From: an uncultured archaeon
Lineage (GTDB): Archaea > Thermoproteota > Bathyarchaeia > Bathyarchaeales > Bathycorpusculaceae
DNA: 64,000 nt
NCBI GenBank assembly: GCA_963810275.1
Contig: CAWENF010000018.1
Coordinates: 1 to 64,000, forward strand
Reading direction: 5' to 3'
Shown: positions 11,134 through 56,073 of the stretch, one piece after another
Layout of the letters: each line of letters begins with the position of its first letter
Numbering within the stretch: the first letter of the stretch is position 1
Notes under the pieces: generated by a model
Databases searched by the model: none
Told to the model about the DNA's origin: nothing
What the model saw: only the letters and a program-made list of their open reading frames with translations
Translations under genes and position numbers: made by a program

Positions 11134-11835
11134 ATGAAGTTAGAAACAAGCATTCAAGCTGTAATCAAACGTAACCCAAACGTGATTAGCTTGCGTTTTC
11201 CACGCCCGACAGAGTTAGACTACAAGGCTGGGCAATTCTTTTTTGTAACTCTCAAAAAAGACGATAAAGAGCTCACTCACCACTTCAGTTTTAGTAGCAG
11301 CCCCACCACCGCAGGCCACATTGAGTTCACAAAGAAGCTTACGGATAGCGAATTTTCAACAGCACTTCGATCAACTAAAGCGGGGGATTGGGCGCGGATT
11401 GATGCACCTTACGGGAAATTCATTTTCGAGGGCGAATACCCCAAAATTGCGTTGCTGGGAGGCGGCATTGGTATCACGCCTTTTATCAGTATGTGCCAAT
11501 ATGCCACAGACAAAGGATTAGACAGTAAAATCATGCTGTTCTACGGGTGCCGCACCATTGAAGATGTGGTTTTCAAAGAGGAATTCGAAACGTTAGCGAA
11601 AAGGAACCCGAATTTTAAAATGATGTTTGTTCTTAGCCAGCCTTCCTCTAATTGGGCTGGTGCTAAAGGCTACATAACTGCGGACATGGTTAAGCAGACT
11701 TTGAGCGACTATGCGGACTATGTTTTCTTTTCGTGTGGTCCACCGGCGATGGTTAAAGGCATGCAGAATTTAGTTGGGGAGTTGGGGTTGCCAAAAGAGC
11801 AGCTTAAGATTGAGTATTTCTCAGGCTACAAGTAG
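11134..11835 (+). CDS. FAD/NAD(P)-binding oxidoreductase, ferredoxin-NADP+ reductase (FNR)-like fold
   Basis: AGQFF, HHFSFSSSP, APYGKF, GGGIGITPF, CGPPAMV, terminal EYF; AGGTGA SD before ATG 11134. Confidence 0.88.
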   Translation: MKLETSIQAVIKRNPNVISLRFPRPTELDYKAGQFFFVTLKKDDKELTHHFSFSSSPTTAGHIEFTKKLTDSEFSTALRSTKAGDWARIDAPYGKFIFEGEYPKIALLGGGIGITPFISMCQYATDKGLDSKIMLFYGCRTIEDVVFKEEFETLAKRNPNFKMMFVLSQPSSNWAGAKGYITADMVKQTLSDYADYVFFSCGPPAMVKGMQNLVGELGLPKEQLKIEYFSGYK

Positions 11836-42845: not shown

Positions 42846-45800
42846 ATGTTTTTTTTAGCGAATTTAAGGTGTACAAAGGCTATTTTGTTTACTATACTAC
42901 TTGTCTCATTACTTCTCCCATTTTCCAGTTTTGAGGTTACTAATGCCGCTTCAACAGCACTAACTCAGAAGTGGGTTGGCTATGTTGGTGGTGGCGGAGA
43001 GGCGCTCTTAACTTATGATGCTTTGCCTCAGTATGGCGGTGAGGAGATCTTTCATGCGGGTGGTTCTGTTGCGCCCAATTCGGGTGGACGGGTTAGTTGT
43101 CTAAACGGGAGGACTGGTTCGGTAATTTGGACCAGAACTATTGCTAATGTTGGAGATACCTGTCAGATACATTTAGTTGATATGGACAATGACGATACAA
43201 TGGAGCTGGTAGTTCCACTCCAGATGCCTGCTGGTGTTTACATCTTAAACACTGAAGACGGCAGTACTGTTTTCTCTGCAACATCCCTTGGTGGCGGTCG
43301 TATCGATTCAAGTCCCGTATCTGGTGATGTAGATAATGATGGTTATCCAGATTTGTTCATCGGTGTCATGGCATATGAGGAGCAGCCATCTACTGGAAAG
43401 GTAATTCGTTATGAATGGAACCCCTCAACAAGAACAGTTGTTGAGCGAGATCGAGTTCAGGTTTGGCATCCTTGTGCTGGAGGTCTGGCACTTTGTGATA
43501 CTGACAACGATGGACGTGTCGAGCTCTATATGAATGAGCGAGACGCCTATTTTGGTGATGGCAGTTGGGGCCGGGGCACTGTATCTTTTTGGGCAGACAA
43601 TCTAGAAGTGCGGTGGCAACTCTATGGCTGGGGAGCTAGCAGCAACATACCCATGCTAGCAGACGTTAACAAAGATGGCATAGTAGATGTGGTTACCACC
43701 GACCTGAGCGCTGGTGTTTGTGTTTTGGATTCAGCCACTGGGCAACCTTTGACAAACGATGATGGAAAAGTTCTTTATCAAACTAGTATTCCAGGCAGAC
43801 ACAATCACTATCAATCATCAATATACGACTTTGATGGGGATGGAAACCTAGAAGTTTTAAGCGGTGATGGATTTGAGGGAGAATTTGATTACATTTCGGT
43901 TTTCGATTTGTGGGATTGGACTTTAGACGCATCTATTGATACCACGATTGTTGGTCCAACTTTGACCCGGTCTTGGAAAGGTCCCACTGTTGGTGAAGTT
44001 AGTGGTGATGGAGTTATGGATTTACTGGTCGTCACCTTCGATCCAAACACAGGTAACAACGGTCAACTTCAGGTCTATGATAGAAATTATAACCTCCTGT
44101 ATCTGAATACTGGCTTGCGTCATAGAGCCATTGATGCTGTTGTTCAGGATGTTGACCGAAATGACGGTGGTCTAAATGAAGTGCTTGTGCTAACGCAGGG
44201 TGGGGTTATCTATTGCTTTGATTCCCCAGGAATTGCTTCTCAGCCAAGGGCTAGAAGTGAGGTACAGTTCTATAGTGAAAGTAGAAATGGTGCCTCAGAA
44301 TACATCGCTTATGAGCGACAGGTTAGTTCCACGCCCCCCGTAGTTCCGCCGCCCGCGCCTAACGATGGGCCGACACAAACTCAGCCATCTCTTACTGGAA
44401 GCACAAACTCAGATAATCTTGTTGCCACCCCTCAGGGAACCTATGATGCTGATGGTGATCGAGTAATTAATGTTTTTAATTGGCAAAAGAACGGTGTATC
44501 TTTAGCTAACATCAACCTACCTTTCGAATCAAAAACCAACTCTCAAGATGAATACAGCGGGTTAGCATCCATGAGGGATTATGCGTATGGTGCTTACGGA
44601 ACTGTTTTTGGAGCGACTTGGACTCCTAATGGTAAGGTTGGCGGCGCCTACTCTTTTGACGGAAATGATTTTATCAGAGTTGAGGAATCGAGCAATCGCT
44701 ATGATGGTGGCGGCTCTTGGTCTGAGATGTCGCTTGAATGTTGGGTAAAAGCGAGCTCTACATCTAATGAACGGTTGATTTTGAAAACCGATCGATATGA
44801 CACTAGAAACATAATCTCTTACAGACTTGATTGTCAAAATCAGGGTAGTCAACTCTTATTTACTTGGAATACAATTGGCGGAGCTCCCGCAATTACTGGC
44901 ACCACATCTTTAGGAGTAAACGGTTGGCATCATGTAGTCTGTACATACAACTCTGGTGTCGGATCTAGAAATTTACATTGACGGATTGCAAGCTAATAGT
45001 GCGTTGAGTTCCACTTATACTGGCAATGTATTGAATACTGATGGCCCATTCGAGATAGCCTTTGGCAGCGGTAGCGATTTTATCGGCTCAGTTGATGAAG
45101 TTCGGCTTTATCCATTTGAGGCCTCTGCTTCTATGGTGGCCCAGAGGTTTGCTGATACAAAAGACGGACTTAGCAGCAAAAGTACAATAAATTCTGCCGA
45201 TACATCAGTGGAAGATCAATGGCGATGTCAGGTCACACCCAACGACGGTAAAGTTGACGGTGCTACATCAAACACTGTAACCAGAACAATAACTACTGAT
45301 AACACAGTATATCTGCTAACTACAAACATTGTGGGCTCTGGCTCAGTAATTAGAAACCCAGATGCCGCCTCGTATGTTTCGGGCGTAATAGTTGGTTTAA
45401 ATGCGGTTCCTGCTTCAGGTTGGAGCTTTACTGGATGGAACGGAGATTTGACAGGTTCCACAAATCCCATTTCGATAACGATGGATTCAAACAAAGAGGT
45501 CACTGCAACATTCTCCCCAATTCCTCCATCAACCTACACTCTTACAACTAGCACCATCGGAAACGGAGCAGTAATAAAAAATCCCAACCAAAATATATAC
45601 AATTCCGGTGCTGTAGTCCAATTAGCTGCTTCTGCTGAATCTGGCTATGAGTTTGCTGGTTGGAGTGGAGACTTAACAGGAACAACAAATCCAACAACAA
45701 TAACTATGGATAGCAACAAAGCTGTGACCGCTACCTTCACTGAAATCTCCAGTGAAAGTCATTTTTTTGAAGATACCTTTGAATCAAACAACCTCTCCAC

Positions 45801-47437
45801 ATGGGATGGATTCGATGGTGGAGCTTCAACTTCAAGTGTAAGCCCTTATGCTGGAACCTATCATCTTAGCAGCAATTTGTATTCGGGTGCTAATAATGGC
45901 TGGAGTGGAGTATACAAGAGCATTGCAGGAACAAACCCTGTATATCTTAGTGCATCTGTACAGTTTAATGCACCACCAAACACTGACAATGAGGACCAAT
46001 GGGCTTTATGTTTTAGTCAAAACACTGCGGGCAATGCCTTAGCATATGCTGGAGTTCGCCAAGTTAGCGGCACTTTGTATTGGACTATATGGTATATCTC
46101 TAGTGGTAATACTTTTAATTATCAAGTATCCACTACCACTTACAGTAGTGGGTGGCATAACCTAAAGCTTGGGATCTATCGAGGCACCTCTACTGACGGA
46201 TGGGTTGAACTCTATATTGACGGTGCGTTGACTTGCTCAGTCCACAACCTAGACAATGCGGCCAGATCGCTTAATTATGTTAGGGCTGGATTTAGTTACT
46301 CTGATGCCCCCGCCTCATCTTCGACGACCCTTTACATCGATAACTTAATAGTGGACTCAACACCTACAACACCAACACCAACTGAGCATAGTCTAACAGT
46401 AAATGTGGTTGGTAGCGGCTCAGTGACCAAGAACCCAAATCAAGCCACCTATCAAGACGGGCAAACAGTTTCACTGACAGCCTCTGCTGGATCCAGCTAC
46501 CAATTTACGGGCTGGAGTGGGGATTTGAGTGGAACGACCAACCCTGCCACCATAACTATGAATAATGACAAAACAGTAACAGCAACCTTTGCACCTGTTC
46601 AACCATCATCATACACTTTATCAACTAGGCATTGTAGGTAGTGGTTCGATTAACAAAAATCCCGACTTAAACGCCTATGCCTCTGGCGCCGTGGTTTATT
46701 TAACTGCGGTTCCTGCTTCAGGTTGGAGCTTTACTGGATGGAACGGAGATGCATCAGGAACCAATCCCTCAACATCTGTTACCATGACAAGCAACAAAGC
46801 TGTAACTGCAACCTTCACCTCTAATGGCGGTTCATTTTTTGACGATTTTGAGTCTGGCAATCTAGCCGCTTGGGATGGAAGCGACGGCGGAGCAACAACT
46901 TCAACTATTAGTCCTTATACGGGAAGGTATCATCTTGTTAGCAGTCTATCATCTGGCTACAATAATGGGTGGAGCGGAGTTTACAAAAGTATCTCTGGAA
47001 CTAATCCTATCTATTTGAGTGCACAAGTCCAATTCAATAACCCCCAAAACACCGACAATGAAGATCAATGGGCGCTATGTCTTAGCCAAAACAATGCCGG
47101 CAATGCTTTAGCCTATGCAGGAATTCGTCAAGTAAATGGAGTACTCTACTGGACTATCTGGTACATCTCTAGCGGAAACACCTTTACTTATCAAGTATCA
47201 AGCACAACCTATTCCTCTGGTTGGCACAATCTTGAGCTTGGAGTAAATCGCGGATCATCTGGCAGCGGATGGGTTGAATTATACGTCGATGGCGTCTTAA
47301 CTTGTTCAGCTCACAACTTAGATAATGGTGATAGATCTCTCAATTATGCTCGTGTTGGCTTTAGCTACTCTGATGCTCCTTCAATATCTTCCACAACGCT
47401 ATACATAGATAGTGTCTTCGTTACTGATTCATCTTAG
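42846..47437 (+). CDS. Large secreted multidomain protein (~1530 aa): FG-GAP-like beta-propeller, LamG/ConA-like domain, InlB-B/Flg_new repeats, two duplicated lectin-like domains; frameshifts near 44960 and 46625
   Basis: Repeated DxDxDGxxD/E motifs; GAYSFDG...WHHVVCTY...VDEVRLY; four 'F.GW.GD..G..NP..ITM..NK.V.ATF' repeats; three consecutive ORFs join. Confidence 0.8.
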
Positions 47438-47689: not shown

Positions 47690-48769
47690 CTATTTTTTTT
47701 GTCTTAGCGCCTTTGGGATATAGGCGCACCTAAGGTCTGAACCAAAAATGTCACCGGTGTAAAATAACGCCGCAGAACGACAGCCACCGCATATGTCAAG
47801 GTACTCGCAGACACCGCATTTACCTTTTAGATTTCTCTTGTCCTTTACTTTGCTAAAGAAATCCGAATTTTGCATTCGATTCCAGATTTCTTTCACTGTT
47901 TTATTTTTAATATTTCCAACGCGATATGTGTCGTTGTAGCTGCATGGTATGACATCGCCGTTTTCAGCTATGCTCATGAACTTGCCAAAAAAGCACCTTC
48001 CAAGGAAGAAGTTGTTGTACCATTCGTCGAAGTTTTGTATGCCACGTTGTTTGGCGACTCTGGCATAGAAGGGGATATAAACGTTAATGCCTGGGGTGCC
48101 GTTGTATTTTTGCGTTAAATCAAAGAGCTTGTTGCATACCCATTCGTATTGCGCAGGCGTCAAATCCGCTTTAAGACACTGGGGGTCCCCACTGTAGGGT
48201 ACAAATCCGTGGAAAACCACCCACCGCGCACCGTATTTTTTGGCGAGCTCCAGCACATGCACTATGTCCTCTTCGTTTGCGTTGGTCACATCATCTCGAT
48301 TGGCAAAAGTGTAAACTAAAACGTTAAGCAGACCCTCTTTAGAAAAGCGCTCAATAGCAGCGACCGCCGCATCGTATGCGCCTTCTCCCCGAATAAAATC
48401 ATTGTTTTTCTTTGCACCGTCAATGCTCACAGAAATCTTGGTCTTATTCTTAATTATGTGCTCTATAGCTTTCTCGTCAAGCAATCTACCGTCGGTTATG
48501 ATGCTGGTGTTTAAACCTTTACTGACTGCATAGTCCAAAACTTCAAAGAGATCTTTTCGCTGAAAAGGCTGTCCACCTGTTACACCAAAAAAGCTTGCGC
48601 CAAACTCGCTGACTTGGTCAACGATTTGCATTGCTCCTTGTGTGTCTACCTCGTCAAGGAAAGCGGCTTTACCGGCCGAAACGCAGTGGGCGCAGTTAGC
48701 CTCACAGGCAAACGTACATCGCCACGGAACAATCAATAGTGGTCCCTTACTTGTCAAGCTCGAAATCAC
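47690..48769 (-). CDS. Radical SAM/SPASM protein (NirJ/Ahb/PqqE-like)
   Basis: CEANCAHC (CX3CX2C), TGGQP, SPASM RCFFG...GDVIPC...CGVCEYLDICGGCRS...C. Confidence 0.88.
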   Translation of the reverse strand: MISSLTSKGPLLIVPWRCTFACEANCAHCVSAGKAAFLDEVDTQGAMQIVDQVSEFGASFFGVTGGQPFQRKDLFEVLDYAVSKGLNTSIITDGRLLDEKAIEHIIKNKTKISVSIDGAKKNNDFIRGEGAYDAAVAAIERFSKEGLLNVLVYTFANRDDVTNANEEDIVHVLELAKKYGARWVVFHGFVPYSGDPQCLKADLTPAQYEWVCNKLFDLTQKYNGTPGINVYIPFYARVAKQRGIQNFDEWYNNFFLGRCFFGKFMSIAENGDVIPCSYNDTYRVGNIKNKTVKEIWNRMQNSDFFSKVKDKRNLKGKCGVCEYLDICGGCRSAALFYTGDIFGSDLRCAYIPKALRQKK

Positions 48770-48908
48770 CAGGGTATAATGCCATAAAGCATGTTTTTGG
48801 TATTTAACATTTCACAATAGAAAGGCTATTTGCATGTACTGTTGTTGATTCCGAGAATCAGAAATTTTAAATCTCAAAAGGATGCTTCCGTAGAGAGATG
48901 TGTGTGTT

Positions 48909-49319
48909 ATGGTTAAAGGATCAGCTAAACTTGTCAAAAATCTTCAGTTAATAACAGAAAACGGCAGAGGGCATAGCGTAACCTGCGACCTACCCGAATC
49001 ACAAGGCGGAACCAACACGGGCCCAACCCCGCTGGAGCTGGCCTTAATGGGGCTTGCAGGCTGCGGAGTAGCCATATATGCTGAAGTATGCAAAAACAGT
49101 AAAATAGACCCCGGCAGCATCCAAGTTGACGTGGAAGCAACAAAAACCCTCGGTTCTCCCATCATAAGCGATGTAACAATGAAAGTAAATATTAAATCAA
49201 AAGTTCGGAAAGGCTTAGTTGAGGCGGCATGGCGCAGAACTGAAGCAAGCTGTCCAGTGATCTTGATTTACAAAGAACCATTGCCAGTAAAAGTTGAAGT
49301 GGATATAAAAGCCGAGTAA
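48909..49319 (+). CDS. OsmC-family protein
   Basis: DLPESQGGTNTGPTPLEL...LAGC, second Cys in SCPV. Confidence 0.88.
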   Translation: MVKGSAKLVKNLQLITENGRGHSVTCDLPESQGGTNTGPTPLELALMGLAGCGVAIYAEVCKNSKIDPGSIQVDVEATKTLGSPIISDVTMKVNIKSKVRKGLVEAAWRRTEASCPVILIYKEPLPVKVEVDIKAE

Positions 49320-49467
49320 CCGGCTTTTCCACCACCTTGAATAAAGATACGTATTTGTTGGAGCAAAATTGCTGATCAATCAACGTGACTTTAAATTTAA
49401 AGCCCTTTATTTGAGTGAGTAGCGACTATCTTAAACCTGAACTTCTGAAGTAAACTATTTCCACTGC

Positions 49468-50818
49468 TCAATAGTACTTTTCCGCAATTTTTTTTGCTTC
49501 TTCATAGCTGTTTTCTTCTTTCTTTGTCGAGGTGTGGTTTTCCTCTCTTTCTGTAGTTCCTTCTTCTTTGGAGGATTTCCTCACATTTTCTCCAACTTTC
49601 TTTTTTGCCTTTTCAATATAGCTTGTGAGATCCATTTCCTTGAGTACTTTTTCAGGTAATGTTTCGGGAGCATAAAACAAGGGTAGAGTTGCCATGAACA
49701 AGAAGAAAGCTGCGAAAGAAAATACTGTTTGCTCGGAAATAAGATTATTCTGGGCTAAGAAAGTTCCCAATGAGTCTCCAGTGAAGGTTGATAATAGGTA
49801 AGGCAAGACACCTATGAGATAATATTTTTCAGCGTGATTATTTTGTGCAATATCACCCCAAAGTGTAGCTATGAAAAGCATCGTGAAAGCCCCCCAAGCG
49901 ATTCCGTCTACACATACATAAAACCATGCAACACCGTAGTTTTCGGGGAAAAGACCCAAAGTTGCATAACCTATGCCTAATAGTGCAAATCCCACTAGCG
50001 CTAAGCGTTTTCTGCCTTTTTTGTCAGCTATAAAACCGAAGGCTATTGCACAAATTCCAGCTATAACATTTGAAAGAATTATGTAGTTTTGTGAAAAAAA
50101 ATAAGGAAACTCTGAAAACGAGTTCTTGATAACTATTGAGGTTAACTCGTTGATAAGCGCAAACATTAGCCATGGTACAATGAAAAGTAGAAAGGTGCGA
50201 TTTTGAAAAATGGATTTATAGGATATTTTTTTGTTTGGTTCAGCTTGACTTTCAGGGCCTTTATAATTTAGAAGGAACAAACCGATTAATAGCCATGTTA
50301 TTAAAACAATAGGGGCAAGATATGTTTGGGAGGCGCTTATTGTAGTAAGCACCGTGACTCCTGTCACTATTAGGAGAATCAATGCCCCACCGAATTTTGC
50401 TCTGTTCTTTGGTTCAGTGCAAGCTGCGAAGAAGCCTGCAGCAATTGGCATTCCTGATCCGAAATAAGCTCCGGTTAATATACTTAGGATTAGCAGGATT
50501 GAATAATTTGAAATGAAGATTAGTACAAATAATGCTGATACTAGAAGACCTGCAAGGAGCCAGTATTTTAGCCATTTTTTCCTATTTTCAATTTTTTCTA
50601 TTATGAAAGAAGCACAAAAAGCTGAAAAGATAAATGCCAAGAAGTTTAAGCCTATTAATATTTGAAAAATGTCACTGGAGATACTCATTGGTGAGGATTG
50701 CTTCCTTTAAAAAATTAAAGGCAGTTAGATACCAGACAAAGGCGTTAGCTAATAAAAAGGTGCCAACTATTGCGTTTTTTAGATTTTTTGGTATTTCTTT
50801 ATTGTCACTGTCTAGCAT
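49468..50818 (-). CDS. MFS transporter; true start probably ATG 50818 with a frameshift near 50690-50710
   Basis: Upstream frame MLDSDNKE...LLANAFVWYLTAF supplies TM1; motif A GFIADKKGRKR, terminal APETLP; ~12 TM in total. Confidence 0.82.
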
Positions 50819-50883
50819 AGCTACCGCATGCTGTTATTCTACACTCTACACGTAATTAAGATTAAAGTATTACCAAGCAGTAT

Positions 50884-50912
50884 TACAAGTTAATATCGGC
50901 AATTAACTTGTA
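50884..50912. promoter_or_regulatory. Perfect 11-bp inverted repeat upstream of the MFS gene (candidate operator)
   Basis: TACAAGTTAAT-N7-ATTAACTTGTA, ~66 nt upstream of ATG 50818. Confidence 0.55.
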
Positions 50913-51042
50913 GATCTGTCCAACAACCGCTAACTTTTTATGCATAATTGTACTACAATAATACACAAGGAAGGATTGAGAAGGCTTGAATAACAAAAAA
51001 CTAACTAGAACTTTCGGCGGCTGGTAAGCGCACTTTCTTTTG

Positions 51043-52041
51043 CTATATTTCCATAGATAGTGCTTTAAGTATTACTGCTGCCTCTCTTCCTTTTTCATTC
51101 TCATTCAGTAAGGGATTTTCTACTAATTCTTTCACACTCATTTCATGTAACTCAGCCTTAAGATTCTTAACTTCGATAGAGTTCAAAACTTCTCGAGTTA
51201 TTGAGGATATTGTGTTCTTCGATAATTTGCCCTTTTCCACAATAGCTTGAAAGTTTGCCCTAAACTTCCTATTTTGAAATGCACAAATAACAGGGTAAGG
51301 AGGCATTTCATTGGCAAGTCTGCTTTTAAACTCATAGAAATTTTCAGTATCTAAAAACTCGTCCTTCATTGTAGCCAATAATCCTATTACTCTGCCATAT
51401 CGACTTATATTTTCCAGATCAGTTTCGTCTGCACCTGCGATTATTCCTCCAATCACGCATTGAAGTTCCGCCACTGTTGCTTTATGAGTTATTACTTCCA
51501 AGTATTGATCGGGTGCAACACAGGCTTTTTTCCATAGCTGGGTTTCAGTCGCTTCGGCTTCTGCTAGTTCATACATGGATCTTGTCATCAAATTCGAAAT
51601 TGAACTTCTCTGTTTTGCTTGGAAATGTTCTAATCCATTTTGAAGCAGTTCCATTCCTTGCATTAATAAAGCATCTCCAGCGAGAAGTGCAATGTTTTTT
51701 CCGTACTTGCCGACAAGGGTAAGTCGTCGGAATTTGCTTTTTGACCTGTCTATAATATCGTCATGGATGTCTCCTGACGCGGTTACTAAGAGCATGGCTG
51801 GGCCAAGCGGCTTTGTGCCTTCAGGATTTCCGCCGACTAATTCACATGAAAGGTGCATTAGTGCCGGAAAAATCGGCAAAACTCTTGGAAATATCATGCG
51901 CGCATAATAATTAAGCGCTTCAGAAATTACTCCATCTCCGTATTTGTTTTCCAAAATTTGCTTTGAGGCTTCATTAAGTGCCAATTGACCCCGTTTATCT
52001 ATAATATCTATGGCCAAGGCAGTAAGCGATTCTGATTGCAT
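51043..52041 (-). CDS. Trans-isoprenyl diphosphate synthase-fold protein with non-canonical motifs (possible ComQ-like prenyltransferase)
   Basis: FARM IHDDIID and ALLAGDALL present; the RRG loop reads KFR; KT motif reads KAT; second motif reads TMKDEFLD rather than QxxDDxxD. Confidence 0.8.
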   Translation of the reverse strand: MQSESLTALAIDIIDKRGQLALNEASKQILENKYGDGVISEALNYYARMIFPRVLPIFPALMHLSCELVGGNPEGTKPLGPAMLLVTASGDIHDDIIDRSKSKFRRLTLVGKYGKNIALLAGDALLMQGMELLQNGLEHFQAKQRSSISNLMTRSMYELAEAEATETQLWKKACVAPDQYLEVITHKATVAELQCVIGGIIAGADETDLENISRYGRVIGLLATMKDEFLDTENFYEFKSRLANEMPPYPVICAFQNRKFRANFQAIVEKGKLSKNTISSITREVLNSIEVKNLKAELHEMSVKELVENPLLNENEKGREAAVILKALSMEI

Positions 52042-52129
52042 ATGCGATATTACATTTGAATTCGTATTTGTAATTTTAGGTTAAATAAAATGAAGGAAAA
52101 TGTTCGTTGCCACTTTTTGGCTTTGTGAT

Positions 52130-52174
52130 TTACCATCCACCGAATGTAACTGGTTTTGCTCTTTTTTTGTCCAT
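52130..52174 (-). CDS. 14-aa peptide MDKKRAKPVTFGGW, candidate precursor of a prenylated-Trp peptide
   Basis: ATG GAC AAA AAA AGA GCA AAA CCA GTT ACA TTC GGT GGA TGG TAA; SD GAGGTGA (52186-52180) 5 nt before ATG; too short for the ORF track. Confidence 0.7.
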   Translation of the reverse strand: MDKKRAKPVTFGGW

Positions 52175-52196
52175 TTTCTTCACCTCGTTATCTTAA

Positions 52197-53054
52197 TTAT
52201 TCATGCAGTAGATATCCGTAAATCCAACCAAGCACTTCAGGCGTATCTATCCTGGTATGGTAGCTGACTCCGTTGCAGTTACTACTTGAAACGAACGCAT
52301 TAAGCCCAACCACAATATCATCGTAGATGACAGGTCCTCCAGAATCGCCGAAAGATACTGCGCCTTTGCCTTGGCTGGGATTAGCAGTCAACTTCAAATA
52401 TTGTTCACTGCCGCAGAAATTCGAAGGCACAAATTCGACTTGCGCGCTTAATTGAGCTATTTCACCGAACCAAGATTTTTGGAGACCACTGTTTTTGGGT
52501 GTGGTTTGGGCTTGCATACCGTAGCCGATGATTGTTAGGTCGGTTTTGGCTTGGAGACTGTCAGTGAAACCTGCGGGTGGCAGCGGAGCAAACTTTGTCA
52601 CTTCTTCTACGGGGCGGTCGAGGATTATTGCGCCAATGTCGCTTGTTTGGAACTCTTGGTTGCCAACTAATGTTGGGTTGTAGGGAAATTGTTCAGAAGC
52701 AGGGACCCCATTGTAGAGGGCATCATCATCTCCGTTGTAGATGATTTGGGCGTTTTTCACAGTGAAGCTTGGAGCTTGGTCGAAGCAGACGCTCACAGCT
52801 ACGACACCGATTAGGCTGTGACCAGCGGTTATCATAACTGTGGGTGAGATCAGAAAGCCACTACAGTAGCCCTTGGGTATTGTTCGGTCAATGTCGGTAA
52901 ATAAGGCAACTACCCCAACATATGGGGTTTGGTCGACTGTAGGATTGCCAGTTATGGCGGTTGCTGACCCCGCAAATAGTGTAATTGGAATAAGTAGGGG
53001 CAAAAGTGTTAGTACTGCTATTCTGTTAACTTTCAAGTCATGATACCCCTGCAC
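52197..53054 (-). CDS. Secreted S1 (trypsin/chymotrypsin-fold) serine protease
   Basis: Signal peptide, mature-like ITGN, CSGFLISP..MITAGH, SDIG, GDSGGP; real start may be TTG 53036. Confidence 0.88.
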   Translation of the reverse strand: MQGYHDLKVNRIAVLTLLPLLIPITLFAGSATAITGNPTVDQTPYVGVVALFTDIDRTIPKGYCSGFLISPTVMITAGHSLIGVVAVSVCFDQAPSFTVKNAQIIYNGDDDALYNGVPASEQFPYNPTLVGNQEFQTSDIGAIILDRPVEEVTKFAPLPPAGFTDSLQAKTDLTIIGYGMQAQTTPKNSGLQKSWFGEIAQLSAQVEFVPSNFCGSEQYLKLTANPSQGKGAVSFGDSGGPVIYDDIVVGLNAFVSSSNCNGVSYHTRIDTPEVLGWIYGYLLHE

Positions 53055-53189
53055 ACTACATTGTTTCGCATGTCTTAATATTTAAAGAATATGAATTTCT
53101 ATTATAAATCAGTGAACTGTAGAACAAAAATGCACATTCTAAGCCAGCAAGCAAAACTCTTAATAGCCAAGCCTTAATCAGTGGGTTTC

Positions 53190-56073
53190 ATGAGCCAAAC
53201 CAAGCAAATGGAGCAGAAATGGCAAAAGCAGTGGGAATCAGCCCACATCTTCGAAGCAGACCCCGACCCAGCACGCCAAAAAAAACTCGTAACCTTCCCG
53301 TTTCCATATATGAACGGACCCCTACATGTTGGGCACACGTTCACCGCTGCCCGAGTCGACGCTTACGCTCGCTTCAAACGTATGCAGGGCTACAATGTGC
53401 TTTGGCCTTGGAGCTGGCACTGGACTGGACAACCACTTCTGGGCGCTTCCCAACGAGTGTCACGAGGTGACGAAGCATATATCAAGGTGCTTCGAGAAGT
53501 CGATGGCGTCCCCGAATCTGAACTTAAAAAATTTGTTGACCCTCTTTACATGGCTCAATACTACACTAACGAAGGTCGCAAGGCAGTCAAAAGCGTGGGA
53601 TTTAGTGTCGACTGGCGACGTGAATTCACCACGGTTTGGCCAACCTTCCAGAAGTTTGTGGAGTGGCAATACAAAAACCTCAAAGAGAAAGGATACGTCA
53701 CTCGAGGCACGCACCCAGTTGTTTGGTGCCCAAAAGACAAGTCACCAACAGGCGACCACGATCGCCAATCAGGCGAGGGCATAACCCCAGAGGAGTACAC
53801 GCTCATAAAGTACCACCTTAGTGACGGAACCATTCTCCCGGCGGCAACTTTTCGCCCCGAAACCGTCTACGGCATCACCAACATCTGGATAAACCCAGAC
53901 GCCACCTACGTCGAAGCAGACGTCAACGGCGAAACATGGATAATCAGTCAAGAAGCCGCTGAAAAACTGAAAGAACAAGAACGTAAAATCACTGTGAAAC
54001 GAAACTTCAAAGGTGTCGAACTTATCGGCAAAGTTTTCACTAATCCCGTCACCAAGCTGAAATTCCCCATTTTGCCCGGTTGGTTTGTTGACCCTAAAAC
54101 GGCCACGGGCGTAGTTTACAGTGTACCCGCACACGCACCTTACGACTATTTGGCTCTACGTGACCTCCAGCAGAAACCTGACGTGTTAGCTCAGTTTAGT
54201 GTGGATGCGGAGATGGTTAAGGCGATTAAGCCTGTTTCAATAATCAATGTTGAGGGCTTTGGTGAGTGCCCTGCGGGTGAAATTGTAGAGAAGATGGGTA
54301 TAAAAGATCAAAATGACAGCCGAGCTGACGAAGCCACCAAGGAGCTTTACAGAAAGGAGTTCCATAGCGGCACGCTCAAAGCCAATTGCGCCCAGTACGC
54401 TGGCAAAACCATCAGGGAAGCCAAAGATGTATTGACTGCGGATTTCAAGAAGTCGGGCGTCGCCGATTCAATGTATGACCTTTCGGAGCAGGTGGTTTGC
54501 CGTTGCATGACCCAATGCCACGTCAAGGTCCTCTCGGATCAATGGTTCCTTGACTATTCTGACCCAAAATGGAAAGAACTCGCCCATCAAGTTATCTCAC
54601 AACTCACCATTTACCCTGACACTGCGAAGCCATGGTTTAACACCGTCATCAACTGGTTAAGAGAGTGGGCATGCGCCCGCACTACCGGCTTCGGAACGCC
54701 GCTGCCATGGGGAAACGGCTGGATAATCGAAACACTTAGCGACAGCACAGTTTACATGTCCTTTTACACCATAAACAAACACATACGACAAAACAAAATC
54801 AAACCCGAATCACTCACACCGGAAGTCTTTGACTACGTTTTTTATGGCAGAGGCAATGACGCCGAACTCTCAAGAGCAGTAGGAATCCCTTCGAACCTGC
54901 TCAACGCAATGCGGTCTGAGTTTCTGTACTGGTACCCGTTCGACTTACGCAACTCTGCGAAGGAACTGGTGCCAAATCATCTCAGCTTCTGCATTTTTCA
55001 CCATGCCGCCCTCTTCCCGCCTGAGCACTGGCCTAAAGCCATAGGTGTCAACGGAATGCTCATGGTCGAAGGGACAAGGGATGCACAAAAGCAAGGGCAA
55101 CTTTATCACGATGAAAGGTGCAGTGGAGAAGTACGGTGCAGACGCCACCCGATGCGGTTTGCTTTTAGGTGCGGAGGGCATGGATGATCCTGACTGGAGA
55201 GCCGACAACATCAATGATTTAAAATCTAAATTCGACTCCGTCATGGGCTTCGCAGGCACAATAATCACTTCAGCCAAAAAAGCAGAAGACACAGCTCTGG
55301 AACGGTGGCTTACAAGTCGCATGCAACAGCGAACCCAAGAAGTCACCACGGCATTAGAAGAGCTTAAAACACGTACAGCACTTCAGACGGCGCTTTTTGA
55401 AACCTGGAACGACCTACGCTGGTACATTCAACGAAAAGGAAACATCGAAACCATTGTCTTAAGTGAAGCAGTCAAGACTTGGCTTAAACTTTTGGCTCCG
55501 TTTGCTCCGTTTATATGCGAGGAACTTTGGAGCCAAACAGGCGAAGCAGACTTCATCAGCATCGCCAAATGGCCCGTTTTCAACTCCGCCAAAGTTGATG
55601 TTGCAGCTGAGGAGCAAGAAAAATTGGTCACAGACGTTATGAGTGACACTAATAACATCTTAAAAGCCATGAAAATAGCGCCGAACCACATAGTGTACTA
55701 CTCTGCCGCCGACTGGAAATGGCAGGTATACCTCAAAGTCTTAGAAAAAACAATAGCTGGCGAAGCTAAAATCAACGAGTTAATGAAGGAATTTTCCTCC
55801 GACCCCAATCTCAAGTCACACATGAAAGACATTGCTCCCATGGTGCCTCGAGTCATCAAAGCTCTCACCAAAATATCAGTTCAACACAAGACGAACATGG
55901 CAAAAATCGGTGTAGTCAACGAAAAACAAATTCTTGACTGCACTGTAGCTTTCTACAGAGACCGCTTCAACGCAGAAATCAGCGTCTATAGCGAATCTGA
56001 CGAGCAGCGCTTTGACCCCAAACGCCGAGCCGCCATGGCAATGCCATACCAACCCGCAATCTATATTGAATAA
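53190..56073 (+). CDS. leuS: Leucine--tRNA ligase (archaeal type), one frameshift near 55070
   Basis: FPYMNGPLHVGH, DHDR..GEG, ATFRPET, SVPAHAPYD, IETLSDST, KELVPNHL; KMSKS equivalent GMHKSKGN after the shift; terminal PAIYIE. Confidence 0.94.

Follow-up and report, generated by a model that had tools for sequence, protein, structure and literature searches.

A candidate tryptophan peptide prenyltransferase cassette with Trp-ended micro-genes in Bathyarchaeia

The gene cassette described here lies in a 64,000-nucleotide stretch of DNA (contig CAWENF010000018.1 of assembly GCA_963810275.1, positions 1 to 64,000; hereafter the window) from an uncultured archaeon of the Bathycorpusculaceae, whose genome comprises 2,257,982 bases (2.26 Mb) in 28 contigs and is 92.6% complete. 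The cassette is built around a 332-aa protein (51043-52041, minus strand; PF00348) that resembles the trans type of isoprenyl diphosphate synthase (trans-IDS) and is a putative peptide tryptophan (Trp) prenyltransferase. According to the listing of open reading frames (ORFs) and direct reading of the sequence, it is one of four genes in the same orientation on the minus strand: a major facilitator superfamily (MFS) transporter of 406 aa (49468-50688; PF07690 (MFS_1), 70.7 bits), the enzyme, a micro-ORF, and an S1 (trypsin-fold) serine protease of 285 aa (52197-53054; PF00089 (Trypsin), 44.5 bits). The translation of the protease shows an N-terminal hydrophobic signal-like segment and the motifs TAGHS and GDSGGP.

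The micro-ORF (52174-52130, minus strand) begins with ATG and encodes a 14-aa peptide, MDKKRAKPVTFGGW, here called peptide A. It lies 5' of the enzyme on the same strand, within the 155-nt gap between protease and enzyme, and starts 22 nt past the protease stop. A Shine-Dalgarno (SD)-like GAGGTGA (52186-52180, minus strand) precedes the ATG at 52174 by 5 nt, and its AGGTGA core is also found before start codons near 11134, 25254 and 34301. A preliminary description of the window, made from its letters alone, had reported the four genes and the SD motif and had proposed that the locus makes a Trp-prenylated peptide; the coordinates of the four genes, micro-ORF included, the SD motif with its spacing, and the recurrence of its core before the three other genes were all confirmed by direct reading.

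A second micro-ORF was detected by a six-frame scan between the enzyme and the MFS gene, on the opposite strand (50986-51027, plus strand). It reads TTG-AAT-AAC-...-TGG-TAA and encodes the 13-aa peptide B, MNNKKLTRTFGGW, with a TTG start. The gene is convergent to that of the enzyme, with the two stops 15 nt apart, and would be transcribed away from the MFS gene. It is preceded on its own strand by a promoter-like block, ACCGCTAACTTTTTATGCA (50926-50944), with the look of a BRE/TATA element, and by an SD-like AAGGAAGGA (50967-50975).

The conservation of these micro-ORFs was assessed in a collection of loci from 61 related genomes (35 of them with an enzyme match at E <= 1e-20) and 79 contigs of metagenome-assembled genomes (MAGs), the homologs counted being from Bathyarchaeia MAGs. 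The formal count covered 106 enzyme gene models. Downstream counts were made on the 103 with a downstream flank of 200 nt or more, and upstream counts on 102; the set includes a few duplicate regions and related genomes, so that the counts are not independent events. A fixed criterion was applied: the peptide had to be 9-26 aa long, contain three or more Lys or Arg and have Trp as one of its final two residues. An ORF of this kind was present downstream on the opposite strand in 65 of the 103 loci, and upstream on the same strand in 23 of the 102. The mirror positions served as control and gave 2 of 103 (downstream, same strand) and 4 of 102 (upstream, opposite strand). The preliminary description had named conservation of a Trp-ending micro-ORF beside homologous synthases as an observation on which its proposal depended, and these counts bear it out.

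The downstream ORF recurs in homologs down to 30% enzyme identity, as a tiny ORF just beyond the enzyme on the opposite strand. Its start is rich in Met and Lys/Arg, a P-[IV]-R motif is often present, and Trp is the last or penultimate residue, as in MKPIRPIRGAWW, MRKKLPVRFWWR, MRVKPIRARAWG and MKTTKIIRGFGW. Its stop is mostly found between -27 and +65 nt relative to that of the enzyme, so that the 3' ends of the two genes often overlap. Upstream ORFs of the peptide A type lie 73-236 nt 5' of the enzyme on the same strand in the closest homologs, and all nine of the closest contigs with upstream flank carry one of the form MN.KRAI..AKP..[FW]GGW(G). Under the strict criterion 29 loci had neither peptide, although at least 14 have, by eye, a basic peptide with Trp third or fourth from the end. 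When the loci were placed on a tree of the enzyme, a peptide was present for 72 of 97 distinct assessable enzymes, across every major clade; 27 of the 97 rows had terminal-Trp peptides only. From these comparisons the conserved partner of the enzyme is the convergent downstream peptide, and the upstream peptide is an extra paralog. The single upstream peptide of the preliminary description is real and recurrent, but the main partner, peptide B, had been missed.

At loci with two peptides (11 pairs, two of which look spurious), the last five residues of A and B agreed at a mean of 4.0 of 5 positions, whereas only 1.8 of the first 8 residues agreed, and tails compared between loci agreed at 1.72 of 5. 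Examples of such A/B pairs are TFGGW/TFGGW, SFGGW/SFGGW, GFGGW/GFGGW, SAGWM/SAGWM and QAGWI/QAGWI. Since the tails are alike within a locus and unlike between loci, a locus-specific reader of the C-terminus is suggested, and the pattern indicates that both peptides are probably under a shared, locus-specific constraint at this end.

Within the source genome, 132,323 stop-to-stop segments of at least 8 aa were compared. Six of them end in GGW(G) and only two in FGGW, and both of the latter flank the enzyme, a pattern far beyond chance. A position-specific scoring matrix for the C-terminal 12-mer gave 31.6 bits for peptide A and 29.0 for peptide B, the next-best genomic segment reaching 11.6; as the matrix was built from such peptides, this gap reflects uniqueness within the genome and is no independent test.

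Several features point to translation of the micro-ORFs. Among 92 distinct candidate peptide ORFs, 73 start with ATG, 10 with TTG and 9 with GTG, and an SD-like tetramer was present at -16 to -3 in 66 of the 92, compared with 270 of 2000 random positions. Comparison of 35 pairs of equal length that share 60% or more of their amino acids gave 121 synonymous and 132 non-synonymous codon differences, a large excess of synonymous changes over the selection-free expectation that is our judgement and not a computed value. The conserved Arg of the P-x-R motif draws on both codon families (AGA 18, CGA 7, AGG 5, CGC 4, CGG 3), which, together with the many synonymous changes, argues that conservation acts at the amino acid level. 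Six aligned peptide B regions had in common a CCGCTAACTTTTTA.G block, TGTAC.ACA and an AGGAAGG SD, while the rest of the spacer could not be aligned. We take this block, and its counterpart at 50926-50944 in the window, to be putative BRE/TATA elements from the archaeal consensus. A search for RNA sequencing runs over 49400-53100 of the window listed none. Start codons, SD motifs, synonymous excess and mixed Arg codons would all be expected of translated genes.

The enzyme is a recognizable but weak member of its family, scoring 64.9 bits with PF00348 (polyprenyl_synt; cut-off 27), while a canonical PF00348 paralog on contig C14 of the same genome scored 209.8. All NCBIfam synthase equivalogs remained far below their cut-offs, the best being IdsA with 84.1 against 468. 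A protein collection contained 266 relatives at E <= 0.001, many of them 332 aa long and annotated as 'geranylgeranyl pyrophosphate synthase', and a protein atlas returned only Bathyarchaeota 'polyprenyl synthetase' clusters, with no functional lead.

An alignment of 70 enzyme sequences showed which parts of the active site have been kept. The first aspartate-rich motif (FARM) is present as DIHDDIID (91-98, with DDIID at 94-98). Residues D94, D95, D98, K103, T108, G111, D231 and R241 are invariant, and D91, H93, S100, K187 (68 of 70), E166, E237, E245, P248 and P250 nearly so. At the position of the canonical RRG the window enzyme has K-F-R, and across the family K103 is followed by a variable residue. 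The second DDxxD, the second aspartate-rich motif (SARM), is replaced by a pseudo-SARM, DEFLD (227-231) in the window enzyme and [DEN][ED]FxD in the family, with D 41, E 15 and N 8 of 70 at the first position and D231 in all 70. Thus the retention of the first DDxxD, the loss of RRG and the DEFLD in place of the second DDxxD were found as previously described. The canonical paralog carries GGKRWRP, DDIEDSSEVRRGKP, GQAMD, YKTG and FQMQDDILD; the family shows no conservation of the Lys/Arg of GGKRxR (region I), of the second Arg in RRG or of the FQ that precedes the SARM, FQxxDDxxD having become (T/I)x(R/K)[DEN][ED]FxD. In place of the canonical FQ Gln, the 70 sequences mostly have T (31), I (17), A (6), V (5) or N (5). 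In line with structural work on farnesyl diphosphate (FPP) synthase, we take the retained residues to be ligands of the allylic prenyl donor and the lost ones to be ligands of isopentenyl diphosphate (IPP). The residue pattern would then be that expected of a non-elongating prenyltransferase. A role as the small subunit of a heteromeric synthase was also considered and was rejected on the ground of the invariant FARM.

An AlphaFold2 model of the enzyme (pLDDT 94.9, pTM 0.92) has the all-alpha trans-IDS fold, and all of its top Foldseek matches were trans-IDS structures, the best being 1wy0 (TM 0.84). In a quick IQ-TREE analysis, which held one canonical sequence only, 99 family members were set apart from the canonical paralog by a branch of 4.5 substitutions. 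The enzyme appears to branch from archaeal synthases resembling those for geranylgeranyl diphosphate (GGPP), and membership of the ComQ family (InterPro IPR033965) was not demonstrated: no ComQ model was among the Pfam and NCBIfam matches, and the comparison was made without any ComQ sequence. Of the ComQ-like character that the preliminary description had seen in the enzyme, the intact FARM and the altered second motif stand, while the GGPP synthase-like branch and the lack of Gln before the pseudo-SARM speak against it. Three enzyme-bearing contigs are labelled as bacterial MAGs (L048, L094 and L095; Limnocylindrales, Caldiserica and Actinomycetota); their nesting among Bathyarchaeia in the tree suggests mis-binning or transfer.

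It was also found that some genomes carry tandem enzyme paralogs (L012, identical to G042:C13, and L092, L083, L077 and L045), and in L077 the enzyme-MFS unit is duplicated in tandem. Several of these loci have a peptide of the strict type beside one copy only. Other enzyme copies are split or interrupted by stops (L021/L068, and G028:C8:43094-44081 in two pieces), and those at G010:C1:67323-68062 contain in-frame stops (two TGA and one TAA, and one TGA and two TAA). Such copies are likely to be decaying paralogs.

An MFS homolog lies 3' of the enzyme, on the same strand and within 900 nt, in 89 of the 103 loci, in agreement with the place given to the transporter in the preliminary description. 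Its best NCBIfam match is an aromatic acid/H+ symporter, a weak one (E 6.8e-7, far below cut-off). The S1 protease is upstream on the same strand in only 10 of the 103 loci. All ten have an upstream peptide of at least 13 aa, whereas the protease is missing from all 84 loci that lack such a peptide, suggesting that protease and peptide A together form an accessory module. The protease had been proposed as a part of the system, and its tie to the upstream peptide upholds this, though as an accessory and not as a constant component.

The phylum was sampled evenly with 401 genomes, and an enzyme match (E <= 1e-20) was obtained in 54 of them. Matches were frequent in the family of the source organism (19 of 25 genomes); other families of the order gave 6/6, 2/4, 1/1, 0/8 and 0/2, and one family of another class gave 19/32. 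Ten loci of this other class all matched the window enzyme at 103-141 bits, whereas the canonical paralog gave matches in only three of the ten, at 45 bits or less. At six of the ten there was an MFS match, and a convincing Trp-ended peptide was seen by eye at only two or three.

Taken together, the results make it probable, though well short of certain, that the enzyme is a Trp peptide prenyltransferase similar to ComQ, PalQ and StheQ, acting on leaderless micro-peptides whose products are exported by the MFS transporter. The genes, their conservation and position, the coding signs of the micro-ORFs and the residue pattern of the enzyme were observed directly, and the earlier interpretation is in this respect partly supported; the prenylation itself we infer from them. 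Three components would make up the cassette: a neofunctionalized trans-IDS homolog, one or two basic, Trp-ended micro-genes of 12-19 codons, and the transporter. The enzyme would hold an allylic prenyl diphosphate through the first Asp-rich motif, which is intact, and the Lys/Arg ligands that it has kept, the donor probably being GGPP or FPP in an archaeal host. The ...[FW]G(G)W end of the peptide would occupy the former IPP site, where the indole would be alkylated as by the bacterial ComQ, StheQ and PalQ, and the cationic lipopeptide would be exported by the MFS transporter to act, perhaps, as a pheromone, an antimicrobial or a membrane-active lipopeptide. The sub-clade of the window may have gained a slightly longer peptide A together with a secreted S1 protease, which probably trims it. 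We count the canonical GGPP synthase elsewhere in the genome, and the keeping of donor ligands with loss of IPP ligands, in favor of a peptide prenyltransferase. As in systems for peptides made by ribosomes and modified after translation (RiPPs), a candidate modifying enzyme adjoins the precursor genes; the precursors, however, have a total length of 12-19 aa and no separate leader of the usual size, which leaves no room for a normal RiPP leader and calls for a change in the leader function previously assigned to the basic N-terminus.

A number of observations weigh against this proposal. About a quarter of the homologs on the tree (25 of 97) have no peptide under the strict criterion, and because the loci are related, the counts make the support look more independent than it is. 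Among solved structures, ordinary synthases are the nearest in sequence and fold: the family profile gave 6e-39 for 1wy0 and 1e-28 for the indole prenyltransferase Ord1, which is only at rank 26 in the Foldseek search (TM 0.74). The acidic pseudo-SARM may leave room for a second metal site and for some synthase-like chemistry. Frequent synteny with the leucyl-tRNA synthetase gene (leuS; see below) is not what is usually seen in a secondary-metabolite cluster. The family lacks the Gln that, according to a review (PMC13290415), Trp-prenylating relatives have in common just before the SARM, and leaderless precursors of 12-19 aa have no precedent among the ComX, PalX and StheX examples of two reports (PMC10853753, bioRxiv 10.64898/2026.08.29.745113), which are of at least 69 aa.

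Three other explanations were weighed. The enzyme could be an unusual but genuine isoprenyl diphosphate synthase, or could prenylate a non-peptide acceptor such as a lipid, free tryptophan or indole, with unmodified peptides serving a separate role, e.g. as cationic antimicrobials or MFS-associated peptides. The PF00348 score above cut-off, the GGPP synthases and long-chain synthases among the top PDB sequence and fold matches, and the retained acidic pseudo-SARM would all fit such an enzyme, as would the rank of Ord1, a small-molecule indole prenyltransferase of the same fold (PMC13290415), as the sixth-best profile match. Yet the genome already has a canonical GGPP synthase, and neither the constant Trp at the extreme C-terminus nor the co-variation of the A and B tails would be accounted for. 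The residues that we presume to bind IPP, the Lys/Arg of GGKRxR and the second Arg of RRG, are moreover not conserved, and we regard a synthase or small-molecule enzyme as improbable here. An idea that shares all the evidence for a peptide prenyltransferase is that the peptide is a disposable scaffold, its C-terminal Trp being prenylated, and perhaps altered in further ways, before it is cut off to give a small prenyl-Trp or indole product for export by the MFS transporter; scaffold-peptide (pearlin-type) pathways offer a parallel. The position of Trp at the very end in many loci (the 27 of 97 rows noted above) and the protease in the sub-clade of the window would suit it. However, a linked protease is lacking at 93 of the 103 loci, many loci have Trp at the penultimate position or farther from the end, and conservation of the basic N-terminal part and of P-[IV]-R suggests that the whole peptide matters, so that a scaffold role is given only a slim chance.

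The micro-ORFs may instead be small regulators or antisense elements, with transcription or translation of B controlling the 3' end of the enzyme mRNA and A being an upstream ORF, e.g. a Trp-sensing arrest peptide that tunes the enzyme or an MFS transporter of aromatic compounds. Trp-sensing leaders of the TnaC type occur in bacteria. The 3' ends of the peptide B genes, which often overlap that of the enzyme, the position of peptide A 5' of the enzyme on the same strand, and the weak match of the transporter to an aromatic acid/H+ symporter are all as such a function would have them. Peptide B, however, precedes no gene on its own strand and so cannot be a cis-acting leader or attenuator, a role that gene orientation excludes. 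An antisense element or attenuator would also have no need of a tail common to A and B at one locus, and the peptides are conserved at the amino acid level, as seen from the Arg codon families and synonymous changes, with an SD for each of A and B and a promoter-like block for B. A regulatory function is consequently held to be quite unlikely.

The surroundings of the cassette were examined for further components. In the window a radical SAM/SPASM gene (47690-48769, minus strand, 359 aa) lies two genes beyond the MFS gene; its best NCBIfam match, AhbD heme b synthase, reaches 185.6 bits, well short of the cut-off of 500. Homologs of this gene are within 4 kb of the enzyme in only 2 of the 103 loci, and it was rejected as part of the cassette, as was the OsmC gene (48900-49319). 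A different radical SAM/SPASM gene, TIGR04084 (AF0577-family; 293.7 bits, cut-off 225; e.g. L038:6579-7709), lies 3' of the MFS gene at most of the loci whose flank is long enough (matches in 46 loci; 58 gene models with at least 3 kb downstream). Peptides are frequent substrates of SPASM enzymes. The gene was not accepted as an obligate part because its identity between loci is 60-80% where that of the enzymes is about 30-35%, because it occurs in 50 of the 61 relatives, many of them without the enzyme, and because in the source genome it lies on another contig (G000:C17:60362-61489). No kinase was recognized by eye among the ORFs at 44.9-56.7 kb of the window (five of these were scanned with Pfam), and none was recognized among seven scanned neighbor ORFs of related loci.

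A leucyl-tRNA synthetase gene is divergent from the cassette and within 4 kb upstream in 35 of the 103 loci, so that the cassette often occupies a syntenic position. In the window this gene (53181-56073, plus strand) is broken into two ORFs that overlap but are read in different frames (53181-55187, 668 aa; 55045-56073, 342 aa), while the ortholog in L038 is a single ORF of 962 aa. The split is a frameshift near 55045-55187, either an assembly error or a real disruption. On the other side, at 44956-47437 (plus strand), two adjacent large ORFs (561 and 282 aa) contain repeated modules of about 80 aa (GSGSV.KNPN…Y..G..V.L.A.P..G..F.GW.GDL.G..NP..ITM..NK.VTATF) and have a C-terminal domain in common; they look like secreted or surface repeat proteins.

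A wider proposal is that the cassette represents a widespread, often syntenic system of Bathyarchaeia, in which an enzyme derived from a GGPP synthase, independently of ComQ and PalQ, prenylates the C-terminal Trp of leaderless cationic peptides from genes of 12-19 codons to give a diffusible lipopeptide signal secreted by the MFS transporter. We put this forward tentatively, as a rather unlikely but consequential possibility. If true, no peptide pheromone or quorum-sensing molecule would have been known from archaea before this product, and the locus-specific C-terminal motifs (FGGW, AGW[FYIM], WW[AR] and others) would be pherotypes. Bathyarchaeia are one of the archaeal groups that are most abundant in sediments and soils. 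Of the stand-alone functional protein-coding genes known, the micro-genes would be some of the smallest. If, more generally, the enzyme is a Trp peptide prenyltransferase as proposed above, gene callers would systematically miss 12-19-codon genes conserved class-wide, and the system would offer a concrete, testable handle on cell-cell signalling or antagonism in Bathyarchaeia, which are largely uncultured. Peptide Trp prenylation by synthase-like enzymes has so far come from a handful of bacteria (ComQ, PalQ, StheQ and ChrPC); an archaeal lineage would be added that is not demonstrably of the ComQ family and may have a separate origin. Lipidation of a short ...GW C-terminus with no leader could also be a useful tool for peptide lipidation.

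No archaeal report of such a system was found in the full-text literature, in which most subscription journals were outside coverage. The comparison below is with bacterial systems and with ordinary synthases. The canonical archaeal GGPP synthase (1WY0 of Pyrococcus horikoshii, and the C14 paralog) is the best sequence and fold match and has the same Pfam family and FARM. The family described here has lost its GGKRxR, RRG, FQ and second DDxxD, and is tied to Trp micro-ORFs and an MFS transporter. Ord1 (PDB 9V4G-J) is an all-alpha aromatic prenyltransferase of the trans-IDS fold with indole as acceptor; it is the second-best PDB sequence match of the window enzyme (5e-14) and, as noted, the sixth by family profile. 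It has a catalytic Gln, Q216, which the window enzyme lacks, and its substrate is described as free tryptophan or indole (PMC13290415).

The pairs ComQ/ComX (Bacillus subtilis) and StheQ/StheX (Sphaerobacter thermophilus) have in common with the present cassette the trans-IDS fold, an intact FARM, an altered second motif and an adjacent small gene. The acceptor Trp of ComX and StheX is 2-3 residues from the C-terminus, and many Bathyarchaeia homologs likewise have Trp penultimate or third or fourth from the end. Their pseudo-SARM is NDxxx or NDxxD, in contrast to the [DEN][ED]FxD found here, with N in only 8 of 70 sequences. StheX has 69 aa, and the ComQXPA system includes a two-component receptor, whereas none was recognized among the ORFs inspected here. 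In a peptide prenyltransferase, one Mg site has been reported, which is at the FARM, with no such site at the pseudo-SARM (bioRxiv 10.64898/2026.08.29.745113).

PalQ and PalX of Paenibacillus alvei also combine an isoprenoid-synthase fold with an adjoining peptide gene, and the product is a lipidated peptide. PalQ is described as transferring C5-C15 groups to the C-terminal Trp of PalX and as accepting the 8-residue core alone (PMC10853753). A review (PMC13290415) adds that all characterized trans-IDS-like peptide prenyltransferases target Trp, and that PalQ needs Trp at the peptide terminus, is helped by a preceding Gly and favors GW and GGW ends; the FGGW ends reported here match this preference. 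PalX is an NHLP-type precursor cleaved after residue 72 to leave its 8-residue core, whereas the peptides in the window have 13-14 aa in total. PalQ is remote from the other subfamilies and annotated as a terpene synthase, unlike the present enzyme, which is a clear PF00348 relative, and its cluster, from a bacterial host, includes a histidine kinase, with no MFS transporter named. According to PMC13290415, PalQ, ComQ, ChrPC and Ord1 share the Gln before the SARM that is not conserved here. By analogy, the archaeal cassette appears to fit the known logic of Trp prenylation, and it is set apart by its host domain, the GGPP synthase-like lineage of its enzyme, the acidic pseudo-SARM, the short leaderless precursors and the conserved MFS transporter.

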